IMG/VR virus record: IMGVR_UViG_2907128583_000005
Location: 32,001 to 96,000 of that record
Origin: a virus
Lineage: Duplodnaviria > Caudoviricetes
DNA: 64,000 nucleotides
Strand: one strand, 5' to 3'
Shown here: piece by piece, positions 16,056 to 38,071 of the stretch
How positions within the stretch are numbered: position 1 is the stretch's first letter
How the letters are laid out: each line of letters opens with the position of its first letter
Translations under genes and position numbers: made by a program
Notes under the pieces: model-generated
Databases searched by the model: none
Seen by the model: the letters and a program-made list of their open reading frames with translations, nothing else
What the model was told of the DNA's origin: nothing

Positions 16056-16463
16056 CTATCTTTTGTCCATTTTCAAATCCTCTGGTCGCAACGTCATCAA
16101 TTCCTGCTTGCCGGGTTGCCCACTCCTGTACTGATTAAGCAGCCTGACGGCTTGGTGCCGAATCGCTTTTTCGATCACATTACGAACATAACGTGCATTA
16201 CTAAATGCATGGAGACTGTCATTCCGCTCATTTAGCAAATGCTCCTTCATTTTGAGTATAGACTGAGGCATGAGAATATAATCCCGTTCCTTAGCCATCA
16301 TCTCCGAAATTTGAATGAGTTGATCCACAGTGTAGTCAGGAAAATCCAGTTGGATTGGAAAACGAGAAGGAAGACCAGGATTGGTCCGTAAAAAAAAGTC
16401 CATTTCTCCCGAATACCCTGCGAGGATCAAAATAAATTGATTTTTTTGGTCTTCCATGGCCTT
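16056..16463 (-). pseudogene. spoVK: 3' half of host spoVK (AAA+ ATPase), split by prophage 2
   Basis: (KA)MEDQKNQFILILAGY..NPGLPSRFP..FSNARYVRN; no Walker A/B part; position upstream of hflX. Confidence 0.9.
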
Positions 16464-18120
16464 GGCAATTGTTGGTACTTATGTGTTGATTGTCAGATTC
16501 TTTCTCGTGGTTATCAATAAATCCTAGGTGTAAATAAATATTTATTTTATTGTCTTCATTGAGTATAACTTTTTTTATAAATAATCGCGTCACTTTTCTC
16601 TTGGTCTCTGTATCTATATGATCGTTATCGATAAGATATTTAAATGATCTCAATGATTTTTGCACTAATTCAATGTGATTTTTCTTATTAAGTACAGTCG
16701 ATAAGCTTTGGTCTATTGTATGCAATTCCTCTTTTATATCTTTTATCTGTTCATCTACGGCTGACACTTTATCTTCTAAATCCTTCATTGATTTGATTAT
16801 TCCAGCCGCATACATCTCTGTATAACGTTCGCGAGACGCTTCTTTTTCCTGTAGGGACTTTTCCAATTTCTTTTTTTGTTTAAGCAATTCATCAGAGTTT
16901 GAGTTTTCTGATTGTTGTTTAATTATACGTTCAAAAAATTCTGTTGGTTCAGATATAATATTTTTAACGTACTCCCAAACAATTTTATCTACGTAATCAA
17001 CTCTCCAATTACGTCCTTTGCAAATTGGATTGGATTCACCAGTCCCCACTTCATAAGACTTCTTTGTTTTGTGTTGACAAACGTAATACTTCAGCAACCT
17101 ATTCTTAGTTTTCGTAGTCACACCCGACGATACTGCTGCCCCACATCTACCACAACGACAAATTCCCTGTAATAAATAATCTTCTGTGGGTCTTCCGGGT
17201 TTGTTCTTATTTAGTTCATCAAGTCTCTTCTGAATTCTATAGTATGTCTCCATATCAATGTAAACAGGTACAGATATTCTTCTCCATTCTTCTCTTGGTT
17301 GTGGAACTTGTTTCTTTGTTCCATCAGCATTATGGATTACTTTGGTTTTGCCAAAATAATAATTGCCTGTATAGGTTTCATTTTTAAATATTCTACTTAT
17401 CGTAACTTGATACCATCTGTCTTTTTTAGGAGCTGGCACGTTACGTAAAGATAATTCTTCGGCAATCCTAGAACAGCTATAATCTTTATGTAAAAGCATA
17501 TCAACCATCTTCAAATAAATTTCTTTTTCTACGGGATTCTCAACTAGTGTGTCCAATTCAGTATCATAGGTATACCCATAAATTCTGTTTAAACCCGGTA
17601 TTTGACCATTTTTAACCTTTGTAATTCTGCCACGCTTAGTATCTGCTAGTATCTTTGCTTTGTTGTATTCGGCAATAGAACCTTGGATGTTGAAGTTCAA
17701 CATTGATTCTGGACTCGATTTGTCAAAATCAAACTCAACAAACCAGAAATCTTTGCCAAGACCCCATATGCGATTAGACAGTTGTGTTTGTAAATGAAGA
17801 AAACGACTCATCCTGTTGGGATGTAGAAAAATAACATGATCACCAATCCCATACTCCAACAAGAATAAAACATAGTTAATCATAGGGCGATTAGGATTGT
17901 CGCCTGATTCCCCATCTTCTACTAGAACCACTACTTCATCTTCGTTAATACCTTTTTGCTTAGCTAAGTCCATACATCTTTCAACCTGTGACTCGATTGA
18001 ATAATTTTCAACTTGTCCGTCAGTAGATACACGAGCGTAAATAAGAGCCTTGATCTTAGCGACCAAGGCTTCAAGCTCAGTTTTGGTGAATTTTTCTGAA
18101 CCTGTCAAAGTTCTGAGCAT
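16336..18120 (-). CDS. Large serine recombinase (prophage integrase)
   Basis: YARVST catalytic motif, recombinase domain, CGRCG zinc ribbon, coiled coil. Confidence 0.95.
   Translation of the reverse strand: MLRTLTGSEKFTKTELEALVAKIKALIYARVSTDGQVENYSIESQVERCMDLAKQKGINEDEVVVLVEDGESGDNPNRPMINYVLFLLEYGIGDHVIFLHPNRMSRFLHLQTQLSNRIWGLGKDFWFVEFDFDKSSPESMLNFNIQGSIAEYNKAKILADTKRGRITKVKNGQIPGLNRIYGYTYDTELDTLVENPVEKEIYLKMVDMLLHKDYSCSRIAEELSLRNVPAPKKDRWYQVTISRIFKNETYTGNYYFGKTKVIHNADGTKKQVPQPREEWRRISVPVYIDMETYYRIQKRLDELNKNKPGRPTEDYLLQGICRCGRCGAAVSSGVTTKTKNRLLKYYVCQHKTKKSYEVGTGESNPICKGRNWRVDYVDKIVWEYVKNIISEPTEFFERIIKQQSENSNSDELLKQKKKLEKSLQEKEASRERYTEMYAAGIIKSMKDLEDKVSAVDEQIKDIKEELHTIDQSLSTVLNKKNHIELVQKSLRSFKYLIDNDHIDTETKRKVTRLFIKKVILNEDNKINIYLHLGFIDNHEKESDNQHISTNNCQGHGRPKKSIYFDPRRVFGRNGLFFTDQSWSSFSFSNPTGFS
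16455..16485. other. att junction of prophage 2 within spoVK
   Basis: spoVK coding similarity stops at ..AAG GCC ATG (about 16463); AT-rich phage sequence begins. Confidence 0.75.
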
Positions 18121-18164
18121 AAAGTTCCTCCCATTTAAATTATTTCATTATTTTTATGTATTTA

Positions 18165-18317
18165 TTATATATCATTTGGTACTAAATGAGAATACTTTTT
18201 CATGATATTTTCCAACCAAATTGTAAATTCATTATTTATTTCTTCAATCGGTTTGGCTTCTTCTTTATCAGCAATATGTATTGCAACCTCAAAACTATTT
18301 ATGTTACTTCTTTTCAA
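18165..18317 (-). CDS. 50-aa ORF directly upstream of the integrase (not in the ORF track)
   Basis: AGGAGG RBS, TTG start, MKRSNINSFEVAIHIADKEE..PNDI. Confidence 0.55.
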   Translation of the reverse strand: MKRSNINSFEVAIHIADKEEAKPIEEINNEFTIWLENIMKKYSHLVPNDI

Positions 18318-18390
18318 TATGTTCCCTCCTTTCAAATTATGTTGAAAGTAGGCTTATAAATAGTTATCTACTCTCTGTAAAATACTACTT

Positions 18391-18912
18391 TTACTCACAC
18401 TTTCTAATTGTTCTTTTTTTCTTGATCTCTAATTTGTTCCATTCGATTAGCTTATTCTTGATTAGATACGTGAGTGCTACCGCAAAAGAGTCCGATTCGT
18501 CTTCATTTTCAAAAATGATGTTAGAATAAACTTTCTTTATGGTATCCTGTACATACTTTTTAGTGGCATCCCCTCGACAAATAGCCTCCTTGACGGTTTT
18601 TGGTGGATAATATATTTGTTCAGTTTGATAAAAAAGCTTGTTAATGATTCCATGGACTCTATATATGACCTGTGTACTTGTATTAAACCTACTGAATCCA
18701 CGTTCAATTGTTACTACTGTTGGAGGATATTGTTTTATAATCTCTAACATTCTATCTTCTATGTATTTAAGTTTTTGTCCATGAGTAGCAGATTTCTTGA
18801 AATGTGAGGTCGAGATACTTGTAACTAAAATAGGTTTCATTGTATCGAGTTCAAAAATAGTTAATCCAGTACATTCCATACTTAAGTCAAATCCATACAA
18901 GTATTTACTCAT
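18391..18912 (-). CDS. RuvC-like Holliday junction resolvase
   Basis: YGFDLSMECTG, VTIERGF, YPPKTVK, DESDSFAVA. Confidence 0.85.
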   Translation of the reverse strand: MSKYLYGFDLSMECTGLTIFELDTMKPILVTSISTSHFKKSATHGQKLKYIEDRMLEIIKQYPPTVVTIERGFSRFNTSTQVIYRVHGIINKLFYQTEQIYYPPKTVKEAICRGDATKKYVQDTIKKVYSNIIFENEDESDSFAVALTYLIKNKLIEWNKLEIKKKRTIRKCE

Positions 18913-19124
18913 AGTAAACTCTCCATCATCTTCAGTCGATCATCCAAATAATTTGTTTCTAGTTTTACTAGTTCCTCATACTTATCTTCCTTTATAAATC
19001 CATATTTATTGTACATCTCAAGTCTTTTTAGTGTATGTATTTTCAATTCTTTAACAAGCTCAATATTATGACCTACTAAATTCAAATTACCATTCCTCTC
19101 CTGCAAGAATTCTTTTTGCTCCAT
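18909..19124 (-). CDS. Phage hypothetical protein
   Basis: Small ORF coupled to neighbours. Confidence 0.5.
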   Translation of the reverse strand: MEQKEFLQERNGNLNLVGHNIELVKELKIHTLKRLEMYNKYGFIKEDKYEELVKLETNYLDDRLKMMESLL

Positions 19125-19314
19125 TCGCTTTCTTTAAGCAGTCATAGTCATCGTGGACACTCAGACTGTCGAACAAGATCAATATTTCCTCTCCAACTAA
19201 AATATCTTCATTACACCCTGCACAAGTTAAAAACTTATTCACCTCCTCATTTTGTGCATCAGGAAATCTAAACTCATGATATGGACTTTCAAATCTGTCG
19301 AGGTTATTTGCCAT
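19087..19314 (-). CDS. Small putative zinc-binding protein
   Basis: CAGC..H...C. Confidence 0.55.
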   Translation of the reverse strand: MANNLDRFESPYHEFRFPDAQNEEVNKFLTCAGCNEDILVGEEILILFDSLSVHDDYDCLKKANGAKRILAGEEW

Positions 19315-19424
19315 TAATTTATTCTTCTAGAAGCTTGTTTAGGACGATTGATACAATCTCTTTGTACTCTTTCTCGCTAAGCTTCCGATTTAATATTTCT
19401 TCAATTTTTTGCTTATTCATTTTA

Positions 19425-22400
19425 CTATCCATGTAATTTCTCCTTGTCTGTGTATTTTGAATAACCAGTAATCCAAATATCTATCTGGTCAGTTGGCTTA
19501 AAGCCACCATTTCCATCAGGAATTTGTCTTGCTTTCTTTTTAAAACCAGTTATTTCAATCAAATCGCCCTTGTTGATCCTAAGCGATGCATCTCTAGTAT
19601 TAAATGTTTTTTTGTCCATTTTAAATATTCGTTCTTCTCCACGTCTTAAGTTGTATAAAGTAAGCTTAGGAGAATATTTAGTATCTAAGTCGGTAACAAC
19701 GCACCAACTCGCGTTAACATTTGGATATTTTGCATCAGCATAGCCCATATGTTCAATTTGAAACATTATTGTTTCATTCGGCAAAACCTCCGGCACATTG
19801 TTTACTTTTAACTCCTTCTCGATTCTTCGTAACTCAGTCAGTCGGGTTTCAATTGTTTTAGCTACATATGTTTTTTTGTATTTATATTTACCTTCATTGA
19901 ATTCATCAAATATTTTCATAAGATATCCACTATGTCCGAAGTCATCAAAATAATTAAGCATAATCAAAATTTTTAACTGTCTAGAGTTAACAGATGTCTT
20001 CTGAGATATATCTACCAATAAATCAATAAAGTACTCATATGTATTCACTCTTAGTTCAAAAAGTTCTTCTGCAATCTTTGTGTTCATATATTTGATACCA
20101 GACAAGTCAGCATAAATCGAATTGGTTTTTTCATCTGCCACAAAACTTCTGTTATCCGTTCCAAATTTAATGCCACCATCTTTGATGTTGAAACCTCTTT
20201 GCATCTCTTCTTTGAGTAACCCTAATTTGTCTTTATTTTTCTTTTCTGAAAAATGCCTAAGAAGTGATTCATAGAAAAAGAGAGGATAATGGCTCTTGAG
20301 ATATGCACAATAGACCGAATCAAGAGCATAACTGTATGCATGGCTTGCATTAAATCCGTATCCACTTGAATCCTCGATAATTTTCCAAACCTTATCACTC
20401 ATATCGAATGCTTCTTGTTCGGTCACGTTTTCTTTAGCGAGGATTTTATCACTAAATCCTTTCAAAAATCGTTCTTTGAGTGGTTTTACTACAGCAGGTT
20501 TCTTCTTACTGATTGCTTTAATAATCCCGTATGTTTCGTCTGAAGGAAATCCTGCATAGGCAAGTGTAGCCATAGTTTGTTCTTGGTACAATACAAACGA
20601 GTTTTTCATTTCTTCAGTTTGTATTAAATTGTCGAAGCTGCTTATTCCATATGCAAAAGGTTTTCTACTTTCGAATGTATGATACATTGATTTAAAAGAA
20701 GGACGGATTGCAGCAATAAAAGCAGTTAACTCAGAAATATTTTTCGGCTTGTATTTCATTACTTTTTGTGTTGTAGAATATTTCTCAACTTGATTAACTC
20801 CTACGGTTAATCCACTGGCATAAATATCCCATACTTTATCATTATCTTTTATTACATCTAGCAATTCAGTCTCCGAATGAACTTGTAAACCGATTCTTTT
20901 ATAAGTATCATATGTAGTTTTTACAACATCTACTTTGAGAAGATCATTCTTAAGAAATTTTTTGCGTTCAGCGATATCACCATCAATCAAGGCAGCAATT
21001 ACTTCTTTTTTAGTTGATTCGCTCTTTATTCTGATAAGGCCAATTTCTTCTTTAATGTTTCCTTGATAAATTAAGTGTCCACATGGATGAGGCTTTTTAT
21101 CTGAAATGATACCTGTATACTTTTCACTTTCCTTGATTAGATGATGATACTTCTCGTCAACATAATCGTATACATCAATCAAATCTTGTTCATCATCTTC
21201 AGCATATTTTAAGTCGTTCTCATAATTTTCTAACTGCTTGGACACCTCATTTGCAATATCAAAATCAAGGCTTTGTGATTTGGCATATAACTTGAATCCA
21301 GACTTGCGTTTGAAGGTTCCATAAGCAATCATAGGATAAGAATGTCCCTCACCTAGCACTTTTTTCTGAGCAGCAATAAATACTTCAGGATTCCCTAAAT
21401 TAAGATCAAGATCGGGCAGGGATTTTGTTTGCAAAATTCTGCTTTCACTCATAAATCTTTCTGGATACAGATGTACAGGAGCGGAAATTCTATCTACTTT
21501 TGAAAATCCTAGTAGAGTATTTGTATAAAAGGAAACTCCTGAGCCACGACCTGTGGATGTGATAATACCGCCCATACTTACAGCTTCTTTGACTATTTCA
21601 TGGTCAATTAAGAAGTAGTCAGACATTTTAGTATTAACAACAACCGAACCTTCTTTTCGAATTTCATCTATGTATTTTGTATGTTTCTCTTTTGGAATAG
21701 TACTTTTAGTTTCTCTCCACTTACTATTTAAAAGCTGCTTATACTTATGATCTCGCTGTTCCTGTGTTAAATCTGGATATATGGTAGGTAACTTAATGTC
21801 ATTACTAAAGACTTTAATTAAATCAGAATCATAGTCATCAAAATCCATAAAGATCATAGTGTTCTTGATTGCTTGATCTATTTGTGGTTCGTTTAACACT
21901 CCTTGATCCAAAAAGCGCTGCTTAAATGTTTGACCATCTGGATAATCCATAAACCAACCATCTTCATTTTCATATCGAATTCCTTTTGCTTCTAGTACAG
22001 CATTTCTATCCTTAGCTTGTTCAGGATAAATAAAATGACTATCACAACCTGCAATTAATTCAATATTATGCTTTGCCGAAATATCTAATATTCTTTTATG
22101 AAGTTTTCGTTGAGGATCTGTATGGTGCGCTTGTACCTCAAGCATAAAATTCTTACCGAAATATGAGTTCAAATCAAGCACAATTTTTTCAATATCCTCA
22201 TATTGCCAAAAAGCAATACATGCGCTTGTGACAAATACCTCATTAGGATCGAGAGTTGAAATCAGATCCAAATCAACACGAGGCTTGTAATAGTAACCTG
22301 TTTCATTGGCTTCAGAAAGAATCCGATTAATATCTCTTCTGCCCTTTTCTGATTTAGCGAAAATACACATGTGACCATTAGTATTATCTTTTTCAAATCT

Positions 22401-22628
22401 ATCCTTTACCCAGTAAGCCTCTGTGCCAAAAATGAATTTTAAGCCCTCTTTTTTTGCTACATCATATGTATCAAAATACCTTCCTTGAAATCCATGTTCC
22501 ATACTAGAGAGTATCTTATGGTCTAGTTCTTTTGATCTTTTCACATAGTCATCAATTTTAACCGAACAATCTGGTGTAAAAATATTGCTATAGTCTCGAT
22601 GATTATGATAATTACAAAACACACAAAT
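19425..22628 (-). CDS. dnaE: Phage DNA polymerase III alpha (DnaE-type, SPbeta YorL-like); start uncertain
   Basis: PHP domain (HNHRDYS), GRGSG, SLPDLDL, YGFNASHA. Confidence 0.93.
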   Translation of the reverse strand: MCVFCNYHNHRDYSNIFTPDCSVKIDDYVKRSKELDHKILSSMEHGFQGRYFDTYDVAKKEGLKFIFGTEAYWVKDRFEKDNTNGHMCIFAKSEKGRRDINRILSEANETGYYYKPRVDLDLISTLDPNEVFVTSACIAFWQYEDIEKIVLDLNSYFGKNFMLEVQAHHTDPQRKLHKRILDISAKHNIELIAGCDSHFIYPEQAKDRNAVLEAKGIRYENEDGWFMDYPDGQTFKQRFLDQGVLNEPQIDQAIKNTMIFMDFDDYDSDLIKVFSNDIKLPTIYPDLTQEQRDHKYKQLLNSKWRETKSTIPKEKHTKYIDEIRKEGSVVVNTKMSDYFLIDHEIVKEAVSMGGIITSTGRGSGVSFYTNTLLGFSKVDRISAPVHLYPERFMSESRILQTKSLPDLDLNLGNPEVFIAAQKKVLGEGHSYPMIAYGTFKRKSGFKLYAKSQSLDFDIANEVSKQLENYENDLKYAEDDEQDLIDVYDYVDEKYHHLIKESEKYTGIISDKKPHPCGHLIYQGNIKEEIGLIRIKSESTKKEVIAALIDGDIAERKKFLKNDLLKVDVVKTTYDTYKRIGLQVHSETELLDVIKDNDKVWDIYASGLTVGVNQVEKYSTTQKVMKYKPKNISELTAFIAAIRPSFKSMYHTFESRKPFAYGISSFDNLIQTEEMKNSFVLYQEQTMATLAYAGFPSDETYGIIKAISKKKPAVVKPLKERFLKGFSDKILAKENVTEQEAFDMSDKVWKIIEDSSGYGFNASHAYSYALDSVYCAYLKSHYPLFFYESLLRHFSEKKNKDKLGLLKEEMQRGFNIKDGGIKFGTDNRSFVADEKTNSIYADLSGIKYMNTKIAEELFELRVNTYEYFIDLLVDISQKTSVNSRQLKILIMLNYFDDFGHSGYLMKIFDEFNEGKYKYKKTYVAKTIETRLTELRRIEKELKVNNVPEVLPNETIMFQIEHMGYADAKYPNVNASWCVVTDLDTKYSPKLTLYNLRRGEERIFKMDKKTFNTRDASLRINKGDLIEITGFKKKARQIPDGNGGFKPTDQIDIWITGYSKYTDKEKLHG

Positions 22629-22797
22629 GATTACCGACCTCCTAATCCTATAAAATATTGATTTTAATAAAATCTGATATGAATATTTTGCACCTCTCAC
22701 CCCCTTAAATATTTATGAGGCTCATAAAGAACAATCGATGGATTTCTAGCTAAGTTAATTAAGTATGATTGTTCTTTATGGACAAATACAATTTAAT

Positions 22798-23772
22798 TTA
22801 TGGCAATATGATAGATTCTCTTTTATTCATTTCAACATTTGAATTTGATATATCTCGTGGCAAAATATCCATTAAATTTTGCTTAGAAATCTTCACACGT
22901 CTACTCATTATTCTGACAGCTTGGTGTCGAATCGCTTTTTCAATCACATTACGAACATAACGTGCATTGCTAAAATTACTTCTTGAGTCTTTCTCAATCT
23001 GAATTATTTCTCTAAGCTTTATAAGTGCATCAGAGGTAATGTTGTAGTCTTTTTCATATGCCATCTTTACTGCAATTAACATTAGCTCATCTGTTGTGTA
23101 ATCCTGAAAATCTATTTGTATTGGAAACCGAGATGGGAGACCTGTATTTGTTCTAAGAAACATCCCCATCTCATCTGGATATCCAGCAAGGATAATTATT
23201 AAATCATCGCTTCTATCCTCCATGACTTTTACAAGACAATCTATAGCTTCCTTTCCAAAATCTTTATCTCCTCCTCTAGCCAAACTGTAGGCTTCATCAA
23301 TAAAAAGAATACCTCCCATAGCCTTCTTAACAAGATCTCGTGTTTTTTGTGCGGTGTGACCAATGTATTCTCCAACTAAATCTGCTCGCTCTACTTCAAT
23401 TAGATGACCTTTACTAAGGATACCCATTCTGTTTAGCAACTTAGAAGCTATTCTTGCCACTGTCGTCTTCCCTGTACCGGGATTTCCTTTGAATATCATA
23501 TGGTATACCTGATTACTACTTTTAAGACCTTCTTCACTTCTAAGTTTTTGTACCTGTATTAATGCATAAATTTCGTACACAAGTTCTTTTACCTTTTCAA
23601 GTCCAATCATATCGTCTAAATCCTTAAATATGTCTGCTGCGGATTCGTAATGATTACTGGTTAATGGAATTTCTTCGTTTTGTTCAGATATTGCTTCATA
23701 AGCCTCCTGACTTTTAAAAACAACATTGATCCTTGATTCATTAACAGTAATCCTTCTAGAGCTTTCATCCAC
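22798..23772 (-). CDS. spoVK: Phage-encoded full-length SpoVK-like AAA+ ATPase
   Basis: HMIFKGNPGTGKTT, ERADLVGEYIGHTAQKT, LFIDEAYSL, GLPSRFP, FSNARYVRNVIEKAIRHQAVR identical to the host fragment. Confidence 0.92.
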   Translation of the reverse strand: MDESSRRITVNESRINVVFKSQEAYEAISEQNEEIPLTSNHYESAADIFKDLDDMIGLEKVKELVYEIYALIQVQKLRSEEGLKSSNQVYHMIFKGNPGTGKTTVARIASKLLNRMGILSKGHLIEVERADLVGEYIGHTAQKTRDLVKKAMGGILFIDEAYSLARGGDKDFGKEAIDCLVKVMEDRSDDLIIILAGYPDEMGMFLRTNTGLPSRFPIQIDFQDYTTDELMLIAVKMAYEKDYNITSDALIKLREIIQIEKDSRSNFSNARYVRNVIEKAIRHQAVRIMSRRVKISKQNLMDILPRDISNSNVEMNKRESIILP

Positions 23773-23794
23773 AGTAATCACCTCTCGTTGTGAC

Positions 23795-23824
23795 AGTATA
23801 TGCCTAATATGGTCTACAACATGC
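23795..23824 (-). promoter_or_regulatory. Candidate sporulation-sigma (SigG/SigE/SigF-type) promoter for phage spoVK
   Basis: GCATG-N17-CATATACT, 22 nt upstream of the GTG start. Confidence 0.5.
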
Positions 23825-23952
23825 AGGTATGTTTGTTCAAATATTCAACGCCATTAACATAACACTTATTCACTAAGAACTTCAGATATTCAACTTTTAA
23901 TTTTACTTTAATCCTTGTAGCTTCCCTTATTGTATGTATTGTAGGCCGAAGC

Positions 23953-24237
23953 CTACTCAAAGGAATTTAATAACTCATCAAACCTATCCTCATAATCCTG
24001 CTCATTAATTATTTGTTCAATTTTTTCTACTGTAAACTCTTTTTCTTCTTCTAATACTATATGTTTTTCCGATGTCTGAATTATGTTATTGGGAGTTGGA
24101 TAAACTCCAAAGAAAAATAATCTTAATGCCTCCCTTACAATATCACTTTTATCCTTGTGTGGTGGCAAACTATTCCAAGCCTGAATGAGATCATCATCTT
24201 TTTTCGGTCTAAGTCTTGCTTTGGCAGCTATTTCCAT
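23953..24237 (-). CDS. ParR-like ribbon-helix-helix adaptor
   Basis: KSDIVREALRLFF, acidic tail, overlaps the parM stop. Confidence 0.65.
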   Translation of the reverse strand: MEIAAKARLRPKKDDDLIQAWNSLPPHKDKSDIVREALRLFFFGVYPTPNNIIQTSEKHIVLEEEKEFTVEKIEQIINEQDYEDRFDELLNSFE

Positions 24238-25172
24238 GATTTCTTGCCTATCTTCCGATATCCTCTTGTTTGAGCAAACTGATCCATTAAGACTTTATTT
24301 GGAAGATCGAGGTAATCAAAAACAAAGTGAGCTGCACCACCAGCAACCAAATAAATATCAAAGTTCATATTCAGACTCTCAATTTCGTTCTTAATTTGCA
24401 TGGCAAGTGATTTAAATGCCTTTTTAATAAGAGGCGAAATATCGTATCCATTATATTTTCCTGAAATGACATATGGATCTAGTTCATAAAGTTCTGGAGA
24501 AGTCCCAGTCAATTTGTGTATGTAGGCTTGTAGTAATTTATAAGCTTTTTCTACTCCTAGCACTATACTCTTAGACTCTTTCATTATTTTTGAGTCATCA
24601 AGCCCTAAGAGGTTGATTGTATAAAACCCCAAATCTATAGTCAGAATTCGTAATTGAGCGGCTTTCAATTTTGCTATTTTACCATTGTCTCCTAATAAAT
24701 AATCCATTACTATTCCAAGTCCTTGAGGTACTAGCTTACACTTCTCAACTATTGGTTGAACTAAAAAACTCTTTCCTCGACCTTTTTTTATTTTGTACTC
24801 ACCTTGATCAGCCAGTCCCAGCAATTTCTCCTCAAAAGCTTCTCTCTGCTTAAAATAAAAATTAATTGGAAGACCAGTAACTAGATTAACCCTTTCTCTT
24901 CGTGCTAAATAGCCCAATACAGTCTTTAGTAGTATGTCACTTGTTTCAGCTTCTGCCTTATTGTTATTTAATGAAAAGTATTTTATGTCACTGTAGTTAA
25001 GTGCAAGAGTTCCAACAAACATTTCATCATTAAATATAAAATGATTAGCTTCAATATTTTGATCAAACATATCTTTTGCTTCGCCTATAATTGATGGCTG
25101 TCTGTAAATCACCCCTCCCTTTTCTGCCTTAGTCCAACTAAATCCCAGATCTAAGTTAACCGTATTAAGCAA
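24228..25172 (-). CDS. ParM/StbA-family actin-like ATPase
   Basis: LDLGFSWTK, VTGLP, VPQG, IDLGFYT, VAGGAA actin-fold motifs. Confidence 0.88.
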   Translation of the reverse strand: MLNTVNLDLGFSWTKAEKGGVIYRQPSIIGEAKDMFDQNIEANHFIFNDEMFVGTLALNYSDIKYFSLNNNKAEAETSDILLKTVLGYLARRERVNLVTGLPINFYFKQREAFEEKLLGLADQGEYKIKKGRGKSFLVQPIVEKCKLVPQGLGIVMDYLLGDNGKIAKLKAAQLRILTIDLGFYTINLLGLDDSKIMKESKSIVLGVEKAYKLLQAYIHKLTGTSPELYELDPYVISGKYNGYDISPLIKKAFKSLAMQIKNEIESLNMNFDIYLVAGGAAHFVFDYLDLPNKVLMDQFAQTRGYRKIGKKSWK

Positions 25173-25192
25173 AGTGGTATAACCTCCTTAGA

Positions 25193-25255
25193 ATTTGTGT
25201 GAACACATGTACCAGTCTGTCACAATCCATCACACTTGTGTCCATTTGTGTCCTC
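25193..25255. repeat. parC-like short repeats upstream of parM
   Basis: TTGTGTCC twice at a 10-bp period, plus TTTGTGT and related CACA half-repeats. Confidence 0.5.
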
Positions 25256-25461
25256 AATTTCTAATTTGATTATACCACATCTATCTCTTTTATTCTACAG
25301 TTTCATTATATTTAATTTTTTATACGTTTCAAAAACACAGCAAATGATAAAATCAGGATTTTACGTAGAAATCACTATCAATAAATCCTTATAAACATTG
25401 GGTATTTTATGTATCAATGTAGTTCTACATTATTCTTGTTCATTTTGCATTCTTGATGTCG

Positions 25462-25944
25462 TCAAACTTTAGTTGAACTCATATTCAACTGTAATTGATT
25501 ATATTTATGTGTTAGCTCAATAAACCACTCTTTATCGTTCATATCAATAGCTATGTCGATTAAAGTCATGATGCAATCTTTATCTAATAAAAGTTCTTCG
25601 TTTGTCACTGTAGCCACTAAAACAGTGTGTTTATTGTAACTATCTCTTGTTAACACTTCTTCAATCTCATTTATGTATGCTGCAACATTTACTTCTCCGC
25701 CTAACTCTAATTCAATCATTCCCTCAATTTCTTTCAAAGTAAGTCTTCTCTTATAGATTTCCTCACTATATTTAAAAGATACAATCTTTCCACTAAAACT
25801 AATTTTTCTCGAATAAAAATCATATTTACTAGCCATTACATCAACATCAATTTCAATCTTAGGTTCACTAGTGAAATTGCCATAATGCTTCTTGAGAGAC
25901 TTCCTTAAAATTTGAAAAATATCATTTTGATTCAAAAATTTCAT
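25462..25944 (-). CDS. IDEAL-domain protein
   Basis: C-terminal LIDIAIDMNDKEWFIELT. Confidence 0.75.
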   Translation of the reverse strand: MKFLNQNDIFQILRKSLKKHYGNFTSEPKIEIDVDVMASKYDFYSRKISFSGKIVSFKYSEEIYKRRLTLKEIEGMIELELGGEVNVAAYINEIEEVLTRDSYNKHTVLVATVTNEELLLDKDCIMTLIDIAIDMNDKEWFIELTHKYNQLQLNMSSTKV

Positions 25945-26137
25945 ATGTATTATTGATCATCAAAAATGATCATCCTCCGATTGATAATATTCTGTTGTAC
26001 TATTTATTTGCCACTGCCATAGCTTGCTTATGTATTTTGCATATTCTTCATCTGAAATTTGTTTAGAATCTTTCTTGTTATTCATGATTTCCATGTAGTT
26101 TTGAATCATTTTGTACCTCCGATTCAAGCCGAATTAT

Positions 26138-27884
26138 TTAACATAGGTTATTTTTAATATATAACCACCCTTGTGATTCCATCAGTTTTTGGTGATTAAA
26201 GCCTTCTTCTTCTGTTTCATATGTATAAACAACTTCTTCGCGTTCAATCTTCATCGTCGCATCTCCTTTTCTCATTTTACTGGTAACCTTGTATTTATTA
26301 ATTAATGTTAGATGCTCTGTCACAAACCAAAACAATACTCTATCTTTCAATTTCTCATCCAATTTATCGATAGTACTCCAAACTCTATCCATGTAAACAT
26401 TAGGGAATCCGTCCTTATCTTTGTAGGCACACATTTTAAACTCATCTATAAAATTGTTTCTCAATTGTGTTTCATTCATAAAATTCTCCATGTCAAAAGA
26501 CATATACCCATCTCCTCATAAAATGCATCTTTTACTTACATAGTGCTTCAATTGACTTAATTAATTCTTGCTTATCAATACCAACCACTCTGTCTCCCAA
26601 CCTTATCTCCACTTCCGAAGAATCACTGTAAGATTCAAAATCAATTGTTTCTGATGAATATGAGTTATAGCTGTCAGTTAGTAAATCGAGTACTATTTTC
26701 ATATGCTACCTCTTTCATAATTTTAGTTATATTTAAATTTTTGTTTAACCGTTTCAGTTGCTCAATTACATCACACATATACCAATAAAGGTCACTAATC
26801 TCTTCAGATTTGTATCCATCAAGAAAAATCCAGTAACTATCATGTTCGTTTGATATCTCGACTGCTCTAGTATGATATACCTTCTTCCACTCGTGCCTAC
26901 CTTTCAGACCACCGTTTTGTTCTATGTATCTCAATAGTTCTGCATTAAACATTTCGTATAACTCAATGCCTTGCTGAATAGTTTCAAACCCCATGTAACC
27001 CTCAACTGAAATGTTGTACTGATCTTTATCTGAATACCATACCTTACCTTTCCAGACTTCAAAGTCTCCATCATGCATATTGATCAATGTTTTGGGATTC
27101 ATTTTCTTCATTGTTTCATCGAATTTTCCCTGATTATATGCATTGTTATAATAATCAAGCCTAATCTGTTCCATCTCTTTGGAATAAAATATCTCTTCAA
27201 GTTTTTTCTTGTTCATGTAGGCACTCCTTATCTAAGATTATGGATATACATTAAAAAGACTCCATCAATCAGTCCCAGCACAAACCAGCCAAGTTGATTC
27301 CAAGTAAAGTTTCTCTTTAGGTTTTTATAAATTCCTACGTGTACCATTTGTGCCATCATAAACAAAAATCCAATCCAAAATGTAATCACAGTCCCATCTC
27401 CAATCGTCCATTACAATCTCTCAAAATTCCAATAGACCCTATTCGTCAGTTGATCAACAGCTACATTTATTTGATGTCTATTTGTCGTAAAAAGACCATA
27501 CGAATTGCATACAACTGTGAATTTCACTAAAGGAATTTTTGTGTAATTGGCACCTCTGTCTATTAACACTTCGGTTACTGTAGCTCCTACTTGAATTCTT
27601 TTGTACTTAGGAAAGGCTTGTTTAATTAGTTTTTTTGTATATTTGTATAAACCTTTATCCACTAAATTAACTGTCTCCTTTATAAAATATGAGTTTTACT
27701 TCAATTTTCGATAGTCTAAATAATCTAAAACAACACCTAATAAACAAACTCCAGAGAATCCAAACCAAAACCAAGGGGTTGTAGTTTGAGGATAAATCAG
27801 ACCATAAATTGCACCTACTAGACCGCAAGCAGTCATTATAGTTAATAAGTTAATAGTGAAGGTTAAAAGTTGTTTTCTGTTCAA
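26138..27884 (-). CDS. Run of small phage hypothetical ORFs (26138-26503, 26532-26702, 26674-27216, 27411-27662, 27696-27884)
   Basis: Co-oriented short ORFs with RBS; the last has two hydrophobic segments. Confidence 0.55.
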
Positions 27885-28562
27885 TTAAACCACTTCCCAA
27901 TTAGTATAGATTGGTTTCAGTCGTTTTATTGTTCTTTGAAAAGCTTGATGCGCTGCCTGACGCGACACACCAAGTTCAACTCCAATTTCCGATATGCTTT
28001 TCCCTTCAAAAAAGTACTTGTCAGCAACAACTCTTTCCTTCTTCGCCAACAATGCATCCATTTGTTTAACTAAATGTGTATTGAACATTTCATCCTCGAC
28101 TGTCAGATAATCTAGGTGACTGTCATTTGAAATAACCTCAGCAAGCAGTTTTTCTTCATCTGTGCCTTTCGATTTATGAAGGGTTTCATTGAAACTAATA
28201 CTGGAGAACTTACTTCGACATTTCATGCTTTTATATCTGGAATGTGCCATAAATTCTTTCCATACCACTTTTCCAAGATATGAAGTAAATTTAATATTCT
28301 TGTTCGTGTCATATGTATTATAAGCCTTCATTAGTGCTACCATTCCCATACCCAATAGATCATCAAACTCTTCCCGGACTCCTCGTTTATACCAACGGTC
28401 AGCTAGGCTTTTAACAAATGGAATATTATTATTTATAATCTTATCTCTAAGTTCTTTATTGTTTGTTAGCTTTGCCTCTTTAATCAACTCTTCATTGTTC
28501 AAGTTAGGATCTCTTTTATAATTTAAAGTCTTGTTAATCATGTATTTCGCCTCTACGCACAC
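27885..28562 (-). CDS. Phage sigma-70 family factor, sporulation-sigma-like
   Basis: Region 2 (NNIPFVKSLA..DDLLGMGMVALMKA..KFTSY) and region 4 (SEIGVELGVSRQ). Confidence 0.85.
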   Translation of the reverse strand: MCVEAKYMINKTLNYKRDPNLNNEELIKEAKLTNNKELRDKIINNNIPFVKSLADRWYKRGVREEFDDLLGMGMVALMKAYNTYDTNKNIKFTSYLGKVVWKEFMAHSRYKSMKCRSKFSSISFNETLHKSKGTDEEKLLAEVISNDSHLDYLTVEDEMFNTHLVKQMDALLAKKERVVADKYFFEGKSISEIGVELGVSRQAAHQAFQRTIKRLKPIYTNWEVV

Positions 28563-29268
28563 AATGTTCTATGTATGTTCCTTCTTCAGTAATTTCAAGC
28601 AGGTTCATCTGTAGTCCGTAAGCACAGGCTCCATCAATTCCAATCTTATCGCCTTTTGGATCAAACCAAATATCTTCTCTATCATGTAAATGGATGCAGG
28701 GTGTATGACCAAATACAATCTTCTTCTCTAATCCAGTCTTATTGTTAAAGAATATATCTCTAATCCAAATGAAGTCACTCTCAGGTTGATTTCGCCAGTC
28801 TTCATAAAAAGGATTAACTCCAGCGTGAACGAATATGTATTTATCTGTTTCATGATATAAAGGCAGCGACTCTAAAAAATCAATGTGATGCTGATAATGC
28901 TTCCTAATAAACTCTTTTGCTTTTATGTATTGTTCCCATTCAAATCCTTCTTCAAAAAAACTAATCCCACAATAACTCTCTATAGTTTGAAATCCACCAT
29001 TATTAAGCCATTGGGCATCTAATTCTTCAATTTCATTATTTATTGCAGCCACAAACATATCGTCATGATTCCCCTTGAGAGCAATTACACCCCATTCATT
29101 ACGAAGTTGCATTACTTGCTCAACCATCTGCCTACTCTTCTGTCCTCGATCAACATAATCTCCAAGTAGAATGAGTTTATCCTGAGAAGGATTGTACTTT
29201 GCTTTTTTCAATAATGAATTAAATTCGTCATTACATCCATGCGGATCACTAACTGCTAATGTTCTGAT
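28534..29268 (-). CDS. Calcineurin-like metallophosphoesterase (Ser/Thr phosphatase type)
   Basis: SDPHG lies in frame upstream of the track start; GDYVDRG, GNHD, VHAG, FGHT. Confidence 0.9.
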   Translation of the reverse strand: MRTLAVSDPHGCNDEFNSLLKKAKYNPSQDKLILLGDYVDRGQKSRQMVEQVMQLRNEWGVIALKGNHDDMFVAAINNEIEELDAQWLNNGGFQTIESYCGISFFEEGFEWEQYIKAKEFIRKHYQHHIDFLESLPLYHETDKYIFVHAGVNPFYEDWRNQPESDFIWIRDIFFNNKTGLEKKIVFGHTPCIHLHDREDIWFDPKGDKIGIDGACAYGLQMNLLEITEEGTYIEHCVRRGEIHD

Positions 29269-29491
29269 ATGTATTACCCCTTCCTAATGTAGTCAATGTA
29301 TACCCATACAGATTTATATTTGCCACACTTGGTGCAAATCATATGCCGTTTCATTCCAGATTTTTTTACAATTCCGTAAGTAATCATTTCTTCATGTTTG
29401 CGGTCGTTTGTTTCCCATTGGTGATCACAGAACAATTTAAGAATAAGAATTCCCTCCTCTCTATAAAACAAGTGTTTTACAACAATATGTA

Positions 29492-30239
29492 TTAGCTAAA
29501 AGTTGCTTCTGGCTCTGCCTTTACGTCAACATCATCTGATTCAGATTCTGTATCGATGGTCAGTTTAATGTGGTTTTGGGTCAAACTCATCAATAACAAT
29601 TCGAAATTATTCAAGTGTCTTAGTGACTTCAAGTCCATGATTCCATGGTGTTCAATATCCCACCCTTTATCTCTGCTCTCCTTCCATCGATACAATCTGA
29701 TAGATTGATTCATTTCCTCATCTTTCTTACATTCAAAGACTAGGTTTGCGTACTCATAAATACTCCAACTTCTACTTTCATCGTATTCCACTTCTAAACT
29801 CACTTGAGCATATTCATAACTGATACCATCATCATAATTAACTTCAAGCTTACCTGTATCAATATTCTCAGCAACATAATCCATCCACTTTTCATACAGG
29901 CTTGAGACATTCATTTGCTTATCTACATTGTCAGTTGTCATGATACTTTTAAAATTCTGAAGTAGTTGTTTATTCTCAAGTGTTGAATTTTGAAGAACGT
30001 CAACCAGAACAACTGTCTAGTTTAATTATGTATTTTGAATAATCATAAGACTCAAGATATGGAACCATAACCGATTTCACTTTCTCTTCAATAATTTTGG
30101 TGACATCTCCGTAGGATCTGAACAAGTTTTCAAGAGCGTTAACCACTCCTTTCTCTAGTTGCTGTTCAATAAGTTTTTCAACCGTTCCATCCTCAAGTTT
30201 TTTAGAAATTACATCCTTAATACTATTTTCTAGTGTCAT
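29492..30239 (-). pseudogene. Phage protein split by a 1-nt frameshift near 30010
   Basis: Removing one T joins ..KLDS to VLVDVLQNSTLEN..MTTD; homologous to 5170..5868. Confidence 0.7.
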
Positions 30240-30271
30240 TATTAATTACTCCTTTTATCTATTATTTTCAA

Positions 30272-31390
30272 TTATTCAACAACGTCTTCTATAATCTCTT
30301 CGAGCTGCTTAATTGCTTTTTTGGATAAGCTTTGTTTGTGACTGTCTAACCATGAAACGAGTCTTTTATTTACCGATTCTTTCTTTTCTGGTTCTAGAGC
30401 AGGCTTCACATATTTGTGACTTGTTTTAATTGCAATTGCATGAGACGATGAAACATAAACTGGTCTATACTTTGCAGATTTCGATACTTCTGTGTATTCC
30501 TCTTGATTTGAAACAGGAATGGCATTTTCGCCATGTTCATTTCTGAAATCATCATAAACATTATCTACAATCTCTCTAAGTTTGTTGTTTGCATTGGTTG
30601 CATAAGCACTTGTAATATATTGAACATCTGGAGAACTGTTCTTGATCATATCAACAGTCTTATTGGAGTTAACACCACTCAACATCCTAGAGGATAGCCA
30701 TTTTAATTCAAATGAGTCTGCCAACTTTCTATCTCTATCAATCTTTATGTACTCAGGTTTGAAATCATATCCTTGCGTATACTCACTGTAATTGCATACA
30801 AACAACCCATTAACAAACACTTTACCTTTATACTTTTCTTCCTCAAGTATTCGTCCAAAACTGCTTTCAATTATTTTTCCAACTTCCTGCAAATGAAGAT
30901 CAGATTCTACAATATCCTGATACTCTTGATTAGTGATATTCTCAATGATAATAGTTAGATTGTTATCAGGCACTTTTTCCCAAGGATATTTCTTATCAAC
31001 GAAAAAAGTTAGTATTTCTTCGCCATAACGACGACTATTAACAAATCTCGGCTTCCAAACTTCTTTCGCACCATAGTTATAAAAGGTCACTGGTTTATTT
31101 AGTCGGGTCAACACTAGTGTAGCAATTTTATACCCTTCTCCAAATTGACCAATTGTATTTGGATCGTCACGTTTAGATGAAGAGCCAAGCAGGAGAGTTT
31201 TCACATTTAGGACAGAAGACTTGTTTCCAATATGTAGTGCTTGTGCTTCGGCATCAAATTCGAAAAACATTTTATTGTCATCTGATATCGTTTGCTGATC
31301 GAGAGCATTTTGAAATAGTTCACGAATGGCATCTACAAGTGTCCAGTCAGGAACATAGTCTTTTGATAAACTCAGTTCGTATTTACTCAA
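30272..31390 (-). CDS. GHKL (HATPase_c-like) ATPase
   Basis: AIRELFQNALD, LLLGSSSK, IGQFGEGYK. Confidence 0.8.
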   Translation of the reverse strand: MSKYELSLSKDYVPDWTLVDAIRELFQNALDQQTISDDNKMFFEFDAEAQALHIGNKSSVLNVKTLLLGSSSKRDDPNTIGQFGEGYKIATLVLTRLNKPVTFYNYGAKEVWKPRFVNSRRYGEEILTFFVDKKYPWEKVPDNNLTIIIENITNQEYQDIVESDLHLQEVGKIIESSFGRILEEEKYKGKVFVNGLFVCNYSEYTQGYDFKPEYIKIDRDRKLADSFELKWLSSRMLSGVNSNKTVDMIKNSSPDVQYITSAYATNANNKLREIVDNVYDDFRNEHGENAIPVSNQEEYTEVSKSAKYRPVYVSSSHAIAIKTSHKYVKPALEPEKKESVNKRLVSWLDSHKQSLSKKAIKQLEEIIEDVVE

Positions 31391-31422
31391 GTTTCACTCT
31401 TCCTTTCAATAAAACAGGTAAT

Positions 31423-33951
31423 TTACAGGATTCTAAATTCTTTTAATGTCTTCTTTAGTTGTTCGTGTGACAATCTTGAAGCCATATTCCTTGCTCTCTT
31501 CCAAGTTTCTTCGTCAATATCATTATCTCTTAATTCTCGAACCAAAATATTCATTAGTCGTTTAGCATTTTGATTAATCAATTTATACTCATCTCCACTA
31601 ATTGGCGCTGCATTGCCAAACTTATCAATGCCATTGCATACACTACGATCATACATTTCAGTTTCATAGTAATATTTCATCCATTTGATAAAGGATTTCC
31701 GATACTTCTGGTCTTTAAAATATTCCTTATATAAATTATCCATCCTAATTACATCCCTTTCTGAATAAAACTAGACTTTTACAGACTTTTTTTATTAATC
31801 AAAAGTTCAATTTCTTTTAATTGCTCAATATTCAATGTTCCAAGTTTGTTGCTGATGCTGCTAACAAGCCCTTGTTTTTCTTTTGTTTGATTGATATTAT
31901 TCCAATAATCGTTTGGGTCAACATATGCCTTATAACAACCCAATATTCCGCTGTTATTAGTTAATGTTTTCTTATCTAATCTGATAGGATGCTTATCGCC
32001 TTCTTGGGTTACATACACGCTTGATGAATTTATTTTTTGAACGGTAAATTCTTTGAGATTTTCGTCTTTGAATAAAAAGCCTCTTATATTCACATATAAG
32101 GTTTGCCCCACCTCAATTTTTTTCACTAGAATTCTCCTTTTCTCTAAAGTCTATTATACTGATATTTCCACCCGCTTCATTATAGTCAACAAGCGTTCGT
32201 TTAATGCTGTCCAACATGACATTACAATTCTCTTTGCTTGGGTTTTGCGAGATGTTGTAGAGCATATTGGACAATCCACGCATAGTAACTTCTAAGTAAC
32301 TCATTGCTTTGCAAACTCCTTTCTACTTTTAATCAAGTTTTCGACCTCTACCTTATATTCTTCAGGACTTGAATGCTCATAATCCGCTATGTCTTCAACA
32401 TCTTTAAATAGTTGATAGGTTAAGTCATAGAATAACTCTCTATTAGGTAAAGACTCCCGATATGCATTGATCCGATTTTTATATTTATAAATTTGTTCAA
32501 TGCCACAATCTTTCCACATTTTCAACAGTAATAATTCTAATTCGTTCATAACATTGTACCCCCCTCATCTTAATAAAATTAGATTTTTATCTCGTTCTTA
32601 ATTTCTATTTTAATTTGTTCAAACAATTCTATTGCTTTTTGTTGAATTCCCTTAGAGAACATTGACAGACTGATATATTCTGTTTCTGAACACTCCAATG
32701 TCTTTCCAAATAATTTCCCCATCGAGATATCAACTTTAATTTTTGCACTTCCATTAAGTTCATCAGCTTTCCCAAAATAATTTTCACTACTAAGTGAAAC
32801 ACTAATCAGTTCACAATCCACACTACTTTTCATTGAATCATCTCCTTAATTGTTTGCGTAGTTCACTTCAAATGATCTGCAATTCTATTTTTGGGCAATC
32901 TCATTATAATGGCTGCGCCAAAATCATTTAATGCGTCTTCACCCTTAATTGCATCTTCAGGAATCCAAACTTCAAGTTTGACTCGGTAATAGCCCTTGTT
33001 CTTTCCTTTCTTAGATGGCGCGTAAGTGCTAATCATCCCTGAAGGTGGAGCCAAGACCATTAAACTGTCATTATATTTTTCTAACACTTGATCTACATAC
33101 ATCCCAACCATTTCTTTATTAGCTCCAAAAATCACTTTACTCATTATATTTATCCTCCTATTAGTATTATTAATACAAAGTTATATGAATATATCATCTT
33201 GATAAAAGACGGCTTTTACGAAGAGTTACACAAGCAACTTTCCTTCTAATCGATCATATGCGTTTTTTACATTCTCGCTAACTTCTATGTATTTATTATA
33301 ATCTTTAGTTAAATCAATTACTTTGCCGTTTTGTACCGTAAACTGAAGATGATAGTACTGAATATATTTTCTGCCTTCATATTCAGCAAATTTCCTTCCC
33401 AATGTAACTGCCCTTTTAATTTTGTATTCAACATCAGTGATTGAATCACACTTTAAATAACTAATTGGACAACACACTTTAAACTGCTCAATAACTCTGT
33501 TACTTACTTTCATTCAACTGTTCTCCTATGTATTATTTAATTTAATATGATTGATTCATTGTTATATGCTTCAGCAAACTCCTTATAGAATTTATTATTA
33601 TTATCAAATTCATCCTGACCATCTTTAATGCCTAGTTCATAGCACATTTTCCTATGTCCTTCTCTGATTTCCTCAAATGCTTTACTCCAAAATATCTTTT
33701 GTATAATGTTTTGAATCAAATTTAATTCACCTTCCTTCCCGTGAGATTAACGAACTTGCCAAACTTCTCAATCTTATATGGTCTTGGAGAGCTGGACTGA
33801 TATTCCAATAATTCATTATACGTTTTTCGTTAGGCTTAAATTCTATACCTTTAAAATTTGTCTTTTCTCCAATAATAAATGTTGTTGATCTAGGATCACC
33901 ATCAACCCAACAGATATCCAGCAGTGTTTGTGCTTCATGACTTAATTGCAT
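31423..33951 (-). CDS. Run of about nine small phage hypothetical ORFs
   Basis: 31423-31743, 31779-32126, 32113-32304, 32301-32549, 32579-32833, 32863-33144, 33226-33513, 33537-33719, 33727-33951. Confidence 0.55.
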
Positions 33952-33957
33952 GTTTTT

Positions 33958-34467: not shown

Positions 34468-34518
34468 ATATCGTCACTCCCTTTGTTGTGGATGTTTTTC
34501 ATTTCAACCACCTCCTAT

Positions 34519-34551
34519 TAAAAAAAAGTACAGGCTTCGTTTAACCTGTAC
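34519..34551 (-). terminator. Intrinsic terminator after DHFR
   Basis: agtacagg / cctgtact stem with an A run on the plus strand. Confidence 0.65.
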
Positions 34552-34599
34552 TCATATTATCATATTTATTTATTTTTGTATATAGGTATTTCATTATTT

Positions 34600-35876: not shown

Positions 35877-35933
35877 TTTATCCTCTCCTTTTCATAAATA
35901 AAGGCAGTGGAATTACCACCGCCCAAGATTATA

Positions 35934-36713: not shown

Positions 36714-36743
36714 ATGTATAGTTGCTCCCTTTTATTGTTTCAT

Positions 36744-38052: not shown

Positions 38053-38071
38053 ATCATCATTTCCTTTCCAA

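Follow-up and report, generated by a model that had tools for sequence, protein, structure and literature searches.

What becomes of a sporulation gene that a temperate phage cuts in two, when the same phage carries a full-length homologue of that gene in its own genome? The question is raised by a 64,000-nucleotide (nt) stretch of DNA, hereafter the window, which covers positions 32,001 to 96,000 of the IMG/VR virus record IMGVR_UViG_2907128583_000005, corresponds to the minus strand of G000:C1:4526495-4590494 and contains one end of an SPbeta-like prophage that sits within spoVK of a Paenibacillus host. SpoVK is described as a chaperone of the AAA+ type, which acts at the forespore to activate MurG and is needed for assembly of the spore envelope (PMC11513918). 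The best overall explanation, to which we assign a probability of roughly 0.65, is that the spoVK gene supplied by the phage works in trans in the lysogen and later displaces the native gene. The features at the centre of the argument, in window coordinates, are as follows:

16056..16453, minus strand: C-terminal part of the host spoVK, its last 133 codons (TIGR02881 positions 137-261, E 6e-46)
16454..16463, minus strand: attR core AAGGCCATGG, with the identical 10 nt at attL, outside the window
16464..64000: prophage portion of the window, GC 0.30-0.37; the element continues past the window end
16336..18120, minus strand: large serine integrase, 594 amino acids (aa) in its prophage form (Pfam Resolvase, Recombinase and Zn_ribbon_recom)
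22798..23781, minus strand: full-length spoVK xenologue, 327 aa

The original prediction had placed the break in the host spoVK at about position 16463, and this was confirmed by the location of both halves of the gene, the att core that they share and RNA reads that cross the junction in a prophage-free strain. The GC content falls from 0.42-0.47 in the host DNA to 0.30-0.37 at about 16.4 kb and stays low to the window end. The first 196 codons of spoVK are found 174 kb away, at G000:C1:4399419-4400003, the distance from attL to attR being 174,037 bp, and the C-terminal half in the window is 96.5% identical at the nucleotide level to the intact gene of the prophage-free genome G034. The position of the attB junction is independently confirmed by 19 raw RNA reads, taken from a strain that lacks the prophage but bears the same species label, which span 16463 into the sequence of the N-terminal half; reads of that strain cover the host side only and, past 16463, correspond to the reverse complement of the end of the N-terminal half.

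Mapping against a prophage-free relative puts the split point 405 nt ahead of the stop codon in G000, G064, G066 and G025; this mapping omitted G057, and the junctions of G140, which have an equivalent core, were read from the sequence. Together these six genomes carry the full prophages found to split spoVK. Because attL and attR of G064 share nothing more than AA, the crossover is most likely placed at the AA of a Lys codon. At attL, the open reading frame (ORF) of the host N-terminal half stops after a single phage-encoded codon (AAG GCC ATG GTT TGA), and no partial duplicate fusing in frame at attP, of the kind known from phage 21 in icd, is found here. The arrangement is that of an intervening element, namely an insertion that interrupts the coding sequence (CDS) of a sporulation gene and has a site-specific recombinase at one of its ends. 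Two further host genes follow the C-terminal half:

14657-15943: hflX, downstream of the spoVK C-terminal half
13292-14545: ynbB-like gene, beyond hflX

As a separate observation, a high-depth host RNA contig spans ynbB, hflX, attR and the 3' part of the integrase gene (13200-17329), ending at 16643, 16847 or 17329 in the three contig sets; because the spoVK promoter is now 174 kb distant, hflX transcripts may begin in phage DNA.

The integrase connects this element to a known group of phages. Its last ~38 codons come from host spoVK DNA, and the circular attP form would be 681 aa long. The nearest named integrases are those of Bacillus phages Goe14, SPR, SPbetaL2, BUCT082 and BUCT083, and the alignment with the Goe14/SPR integrase (41.7% identity over aa 1-556, E 5e-114) ends at aa 556, which is the position of the att core. 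The element thus combines a serine integrase homologous to that of Goe14, an attP in the 3' coding region of the integrase gene and a Lys-codon crossover in spoVK. It has 174,037 bp and a GC content of 33% as against 45% in the host, and is a complete large temperate phage (gene content below).

The predicted full-length spoVK homologue about 6 kb inside the prophage is present, lies ~6.3 kb inside the attR end and keeps all of its AAA+ motifs. Its best family is TIGR02881 (spore_V_K; 407.7 bits, profile positions 3-260 of 261), which is ahead of the second family, CbbX (268), by ~140 bits; the score is below the TIGR02881 cut-off of 422.95, as are those of the genus's own host genes (414-418). 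Pfam AAA and AAA_lid_6 also match the protein. The segments GNPGTGKT, LFIDEAY, GLPSRFP and FSNARYVRN, which we take to be the Walker A motif, the Walker B motif, the PSRF arginine finger and sensor-2, respectively, are all intact. The true start is likely to be GTG at 23772, giving a protein of 324 aa preceded by the ribosome-binding site (RBS) AGAGGTGA, because the alternative GTG at 23781 falls within that likely RBS. Compared with the host gene joined in silico, the copy has 60.6% amino acid and 60.9% nucleotide identity, and its composition (GC 0.351, GC at third codon positions (GC3) 0.26) is phage-like. A recent duplication of the host gene was considered and ruled out by the 61% identity at both levels and by the placement of the two genes in separate superclades; the copy is a distant xenologue. 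It is under strong purifying selection: the dN/dS ratio was 0.033-0.056 in each of the four prophage-copy pairs that could be measured (0.056 with the copy of G064), and 0.007 between two phage-type alleles that occupy the native locus (G043 and G046).

Upstream of the copy lie two elements that bear on its expression:

23795..23824, minus strand: promoter-like motif, GCATGTT (-35-like, 23824-23818), a 15-nt spacer and CATATACT (-10-like, 23802-23795)
23941..23956, minus strand: perfect hairpin GTAGGC-TTCG-GCCTAC, which overlaps the upstream gene's stop codon

A sporulation-type promoter ahead of the copy had been part of the original prediction, and the motif at 23824-23795 proved to be conserved. 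All six prophage copies have in common the upstream sequence GCAT(G/T)TT, a 14-15-nt spacer and CATATACTGTC(T/A)(T/C)AACGAG(AG)GTGAT, and the motif is kept in four of the five native-locus phage-type genes of the genus (the G043 group), being partial in the fifth (G014). The leader and the RBS are conserved along with the motif in the six prophage copies and the G043-group alleles, and this despite saturation of synonymous sites in the gene itself (dS 1.0-1.6 or not computable). The host-type genes of the genus have a different motif, TAATA(A/T), 14 nt and AATACATT. The sigmaE consensus is kmATAtt, ~14 nt, CATACAhT. The motifs of both phage-type and host-type spoVK resemble this consensus and look sigmaE-type, and no sigma70-type site was found within 23782-23952 upstream of the copy. 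In Bacillus subtilis, spoVK is reported to have two promoters, P1 for sigmaE and P2 for sigmaK (PMC517825). The hairpin, whose 16 nt are identical in the prophages of G064, G066, G057, G009 and G069, probably insulates the copy from the parM-like operon upstream; the intergenic sequence upstream of the copy yielded no intrinsic terminator, and downstream there is no convincing one. In one RNA run of the lysogen (X9), a contig covering 22446-23774 has a depth of 123.8, ~13 times that of the flanking contigs (9.3 and 9.1), the host ynbB-hflX contig reaching 114.9 in comparison; in the runs X3 and X5 the region is flat, at depths of 13.9 and 24.5. The discrete X9 contig is suggestive of a separately regulated, monocistronic-like transcript.

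The two spoVK genes of the lysogen have not evolved in isolation from each other, as is apparent from one short tract:

22921..22974, minus strand: gene-conversion tract in the phage copy, encoding FSNARYVRNVIEKAIRHQAV; the partner is host 16152-16205

The near-identity of these two segments, noticed in the original prediction, amounts to 51 of 54 nt between the phage copy and its own host half, 53/54 against the prophage-free G034 and 37-46/54 against other phage copies, other stretches of identical amino acids being identical at ~40/54 nt. Runs of identical codons reach 18 between this phage and its nearest prophage-free host, G034, and 20 between the G064 phage and its own host clade, and neither length was attained in 20,000 shuffles; four controls (two cross-comparisons and two other lysogens) gave runs of 3-7, the chance level. 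Chance or codon constraint as the source of the patch is excluded by its host-clade specificity and the shuffle test. The patches are short, recent tracts of host-to-phage gene conversion, and the phage and host spoVK genes therefore recombine.

How general is the association between the disrupted target and the replacement gene? In a sample of 93 Paenibacillus species genomes, spoVK is split in five (G000, G064, G066, G057 and G025), and a phage-type gene is present in all five. In four of them the copy is intact and occupies the same position, ~6 kb from attR, between orf94 and dnaE. The neighbouring genes in the window are:

19425..22700, minus strand: DnaE-like DNA polymerase III alpha gene, downstream neighbour of the spoVK copy
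23953-24237: orf94, upstream of the copy together with the ParM/ALP gene
24228..25172, minus strand: actin-like ParM/ALP gene (Pfam ALP_N), used as a marker for related prophages

The order parM-orf94-spoVK-dnaE is common to the prophages of G064, G066, G057, G009 and G069. A related ParM-like marker occurs in 8 of the 93 genomes, six of which have the spoVK copy. In five further species (G043, G046, G054, G081 and G014), the phage-type gene is the sole spoVK, located upstream of hflX-ynbB with no prophage in sight; in G043, homology to the host locus stops ~165 nt before the start codon and returns ~20 nt after the stop codon.

The pattern extends to a family-wide sample of 401 genomes. In a sister genus (g13), the sole spoVK match in six of the 58 species sampled is a phage-type gene of 66-70% identity, which stands directly upstream of hflX in G104, G400, G372 and G168 and is separated from it by 1.8-2.5 kb in G238 and G432; wherever examined, these genes follow a host DUF218 gene. 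At these g13 loci the GC content of the gene is 0.05-0.11 below that of hflX; for replaced loci as a group the total GC of the gene is 0.05-0.10 below, against 0.00-0.05 for host-type genes. Intermediate states were also found. In G398 (g18), a 7.3-kb remnant (L125:3652-11902) lies between the spoVK halves, the order being host N-terminal half, 0.5 kb, intact phage-type copy, IS3-like transposase, truncated integrase (a C-terminal fragment), frameshifted host C-terminal half and hflX, and in G153 (g6) a low-GC copy abuts a 78-aa remnant of the host C-terminal half. Among ten family genomes with multiple or low-scoring matches that were checked (G329 and genomes with four matches being left out of this check), only G140 had a split gene, G390 was without a canonical spoVK and the other eight had AAA paralogues. 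Separately, in g6 a low-GC spoVK is present in 7 of the 21 sampled species and forms a clade of its own next to the phage-type genes (L092-L098, L126), with a GC content of 0.37-0.43 against ~0.48 for hflX, both values having been measured at G174 and G183 only.

Phylogenetic analysis, proposed with the original prediction as a check, separates host-type from phage-type (low-GC) genes into two superclades with support of 100*/100* in the quick tree (60 rows) and 100/100 in the careful tree (26 rows). The low-GC superclade contains every prophage copy, every phage-type gene at a native locus and the seven odd genes of g6, host-type sequences cluster by genus, and the branch that separates the superclades far exceeds the genus in depth. 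When rooted on host-type genes, the phage-type clade of the genus (99/99) consists of the G000 and G064 prophage copies and a second part, supported at 96/95, in which the native genes of the G043 group and of G014 are found with the prophage copies of G066, G009, G057 and G069; the native-locus alleles are thus nested among the prophage copies. Forcing the six prophage copies into one clade costs 21.7 log-likelihood units (lnL) and is rejected by the approximately unbiased (AU) test (p-AU 0.0035). In trees of the HflX and YnbB proteins, G014 and the G043 group are nested within the genus, beside five species with host-type genes, and the six g13 species with phage-type genes require at least four changes.

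The series from full prophage through remnant to clean native-locus gene is most economically explained if the phage gene can do the job of the host gene. We propose that the 174-kb phage integrates by means of its Goe14-type integrase at the AA of the spoVK Lys codon, cutting the gene in two, and that in the lysogen the hairpin-insulated xenologue, with its own promoter, would supply SpoVK in trans. Sporulation would then not depend on precise excision, since SpoVK would come in trans. The host and phage genes, direct repeats 6.3 kb apart, swap short conversion tracts and, as prophages decay over time with spoVK retained, the phage-type gene and its promoter would end as the sole spoVK at the native locus. 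Complementation in trans, the functional core of the original prediction, is strongly, if indirectly, supported by the intact catalytic motifs, the selection on the copy, its promoter, the X9 contig and the service of phage-type genes as sole spoVK in 11 other species; the comparative series strongly supports functional equivalence, and complementation in this particular lysogen is supported rather than proved. The sigmaE dependence of the gene, its actual complementation in this strain and the dispensability of excision are parts of the account that we infer.

The att-equivalent codons of the copy and of the host were noted in the original prediction to differ, and they do (AAAGTCATGGag versus AAGGCCATGGaa): the att-equivalent site of the copy is identical to attB at 8 of 10 core positions and at 48 of 70 over the wider site, the AA crossover dinucleotide being retained. 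The corresponding copies in G064 and G066 differ from attB at 26/70 and 27/70 positions. The differences are concentrated immediately 3' of the crossover, at residues that are QKNQF in host-type proteins and RSDDL or similar in phage-type ones. The 22 mismatches over 70 positions are compatible with a copy that resists self-integration. Selection against recognition of the copy by the integrase is plausible, because the dnaE-integrase segment would be deleted or inverted if attP recombined with the copy, and the divergence 3' of the crossover may reflect selection of this kind. On the broader reading suggested below, hosts in which the gene has been replaced may be refractory to this phage family, because the replaced allele no longer matches attB.

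Several observations weigh against our preferred explanation, most of them by lending weight to one of its rivals. One concerns the evidence for expression: the RNA signal comes from one of the three lysogen runs, contig depth being a poor measure of level and the growth condition not being on record. The others concern the behaviour of the element. The rival that survives best, even if at about one chance in five we consider it unlikely, holds that the copy is dispensable cargo and that precise excision in the mother cell rebuilds the host spoVK, on the model of SPbeta in spsM and of skin in sigK, elements of a type whose developmental excision is described as established (PMC4191935, PMC5499854). 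Because the serine integrase and both att sites, with their perfect 10-nt core, are intact, developmental excision could indeed also restore the host gene here, and not every relative of Goe14 type has a working replacement. No match to the spoVK homologue was found in the B. subtilis phages Goe14, SPR, SPbetaL2, BUCT082 and BUCT083, which integrate into spoVK; G140 (g4) has an element of ~154 kb (L222, L223) in the same spoVK site, with parM, orf94 and a Goe14-type integrase (48.8% identical), no recognisable DnaE of this type and no spoVK copy; and the copy of G025, located 0.5 kb from attL, has a premature TAA. For G140, G025 and Goe14, excision is probably the route taken. Against dispensable cargo as an account of the present element stand the strong purifying selection on the copy, its own conserved promoter, its presence in five of five split-spoVK species of the genus (intact in four) and the sufficiency of the phage-type gene alone in the 11 species that lack a host-type gene. 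The three RNA contig sets of the lysogen show neither an attB joint nor a loose end, but rare forms drop out of contigs, so that this absence is essentially uninformative and counts only weakly against excision; and, according to the Goe14 preprint, no SprB-like directionality factor was seen in that phage (bioRxiv 10.1101/2021.11.22.469490), nor was one identified in the present element, where no search aimed at it was made. The two routes, complementation and excision, are not mutually exclusive.

Somewhat less probable again is that spoVK serves the phage as an auxiliary sporulation gene, tuning or speeding envelope assembly for carriage into spores or acting on cell-wall synthesis during infection, with its occurrence in a spoVK-splitting phage being incidental. 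This possibility is suggested by G009 and G069 (2 of the 93 genomes), which carry the copy although their host spoVK is intact: the module parM-orf94-spoVK-dnaE is here part of a prophage beside a shortened ytfJ, another sporulation gene, and the prophages have a different serine recombinase of 495-500 aa (L039:5729-7654, L042:5492-7437). No second, phage-borne ytfJ copy was found, there being one YtfJ match per genome in the five genomes searched. Because these ytfJ-adjacent relatives keep the gene with spoVK undisrupted, and pairs that include them show dN/dS of 0.033-0.043, a direct benefit to the phage remains in play. SpoVK-like proteins are also reported from virulent or unrelated phages, namely gp596 of Bacillus phage G (42%) and a protein of Brevibacillus phage Emery (36%; bioRxiv 10.1101/2024.12.16.628780). 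Against it, the copy is present in all five split-spoVK species of the genus but in only two of the four related prophages integrated outside spoVK; G051, whose DnaE is 78% identical to that of this phage, and G016 have the ParM marker without the copy and are integrated at neither spoVK nor ytfJ. Moreover, the promoter looks sporulation-type rather than phage-type and persists before the gene in phage-free species, and the gene can serve as the only spoVK of its host.

The reverse direction of transfer, whereby the phage-type gene would be native to some Paenibacillus lineages and captured from them by phages, the native-locus genes being the originals, is improbable in view of the nesting of phage-type species among host-type ones with at least four changes in g13, the superclade branch far exceeding the depth of the genus, the rejected monophyly of prophage copies, the depressed GC content of the gene at replaced loci, the decayed remnants with host half-genes that flank the copy in G398 and G153, and the native alleles bearing the promoter of the phage copy and not the host-type one. 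What it has in its favour is that the G043-group gene looks host-adapted, because its GC3 (0.38-0.42) is not below that of hflX (0.34-0.38), and that a single origin of the five native genes, at a cost of 8.75 lnL, is only marginally rejected (p-AU 0.043, with the groups for the AU tests having been chosen after the first quick tree).

Supply of SpoVK in trans, followed by displacement of the native gene, therefore remains the reading we prefer, and it leads to a broader suggestion. Because the phage breaks the host spoVK and supplies a working xenologue, the lysogen would depend on phage DNA for this gene. It is conceivable, although we put forward the idea tentatively and at less than even odds, that phages drive recurrent replacement of spoVK in this manner, the lysogen being made dependent, the prophage being lost and the phage gene staying behind, and that such events number at least one or two in one genus and at least four in another. 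That replacement can become permanent is shown by the comparative data: a core developmental gene has been swapped in situ for a phage xenologue, with full prophages, remnants and clean replacements all represented in living species, which offers a concrete and testable route to the xenologous displacement of conserved genes. Two practical uses follow: the divergent SpoVK variants (~60% identity), interchangeable if the inference is true, provide natural material for the study of MurG recognition, and the integrase with the pseudo-attB in the copy makes a natural pair for the study of site discrimination by serine integrases.

The remaining gene content of the prophage is as follows. Inside the window are genes for a ligase, a RecJ-like protein, ribonucleotide reductases (RNR), thymidylate synthase, dihydrofolate reductase (DHFR), a sigma-like protein, the ParM-like actin, DnaE and RuvC; outside it are those for the terminase, portal, virion proteins, a 2454-aa tape measure, tail proteins, holin, endolysin and repressor-like proteins. 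Membership in the genus Spbetavirus is unlikely given the 174-kb size and the Paenibacillus host, similarity having been compared at the protein level. Two of the reductase genes appear to be divided. The halves of an NRDD family protein are encoded by adjacent minus-strand ORFs with ~240 nt between them, 40568-41569 (profile positions 264-562) and 41806-42792 (1-263), which by their profile matches represent a split or interrupted phage nrdD, and 36744-37133 (minus strand) matches only the last third of the small RNR subunit (profile positions 191-280), so that the remainder of that gene may be separated from it by an intervening sequence. The phage gene at 27885-28562 (minus strand) has a Sigma70 region 2 domain and could in principle encode a sigma factor that reads phage promoters. 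An AgrB-like protein and a homologue of MazF-like toxins are also encoded by the prophage outside the window (G000:C1:4498000-4500000 and 4493500-4494000; L132:1446-1982 and L131:15512-15901).

Of the components of this system, it is already known that SPbeta-like phages integrate at spoVK, that prophages occur in sporulation genes and that some phages have SpoVK-like genes. In the full-text literature searched, which did not extend to subscription-only papers, we found no description of a spoVK-integrating phage carrying spoVK, of the conversion tracts or of a native locus taken over in situ. SpoVK-family AAA+ ATPases do occur in other phages, as gp596 of phage G and a 'stage V sporulation protein K' of phage Emery demonstrate, but at an identity of only 36-42%, and neither phage is known to disrupt spoVK; the authors of the phage G preprint state that they found no other phage with a gp596 homologue (bioRxiv 10.1101/2024.12.16.628780).

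The closest relatives in mechanism are the Goe14-like phages; Goe14 itself is described as integrating into spoVK by way of an attP that lies within its integrase gene, the core being an AAG lysine triplet (Kohm et al., bioRxiv 10.1101/2021.11.22.469490). The present phage has the same target and a Lys-codon crossover (AAG core in Goe14; AA to AAGGCCATGG here), its integrase is likewise shortened upon integration (681 to 594 aa here, and by 131 aa in Goe14 as given in the preprint), and it has a large siphovirus-like genome with DnaE, RNR and thymidylate synthase genes. It differs from the Goe14 group in its own spoVK copy, its Paenibacillus host and its size, 174 kb as compared to ~125-134 kb, the similarity being at the protein level only.

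A different way of sparing the target is that of phage 21 and e14 in icd of Escherichia coli and of phages that integrate into tRNA genes, where a duplicated 3' end of the target keeps the gene functional. SPbeta-like prophages integrating into glnA are similarly reported to duplicate 106 bases (bioRxiv 10.1101/2021.11.22.469490). As in the icd type, phage sequence homologous to the target would here keep the function and can become part of the host gene; unlike in that type, it is not a partial segment abutting attP but an entire gene, diverged to 61% identity, which has a promoter of its own and lies 6.3 kb from attR. The sporulation-gene elements skin/sigK, SPbeta/spsM, gin/gerE and yin/yabG, in which the gene is reported to be restored by excision (PMC4191935, PMC5499854), share with the present phage the interruption of the CDS of a mother-cell sporulation gene by an element with a serine recombinase. 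The textbook solution to a prophage residing in a sporulation gene is thus excision; whereas those elements are without a second copy of their target, the phage described here brings a complete, separately promoted gene, and with it what would be an alternative answer to the same problem, a replacement supplied by the phage itself.

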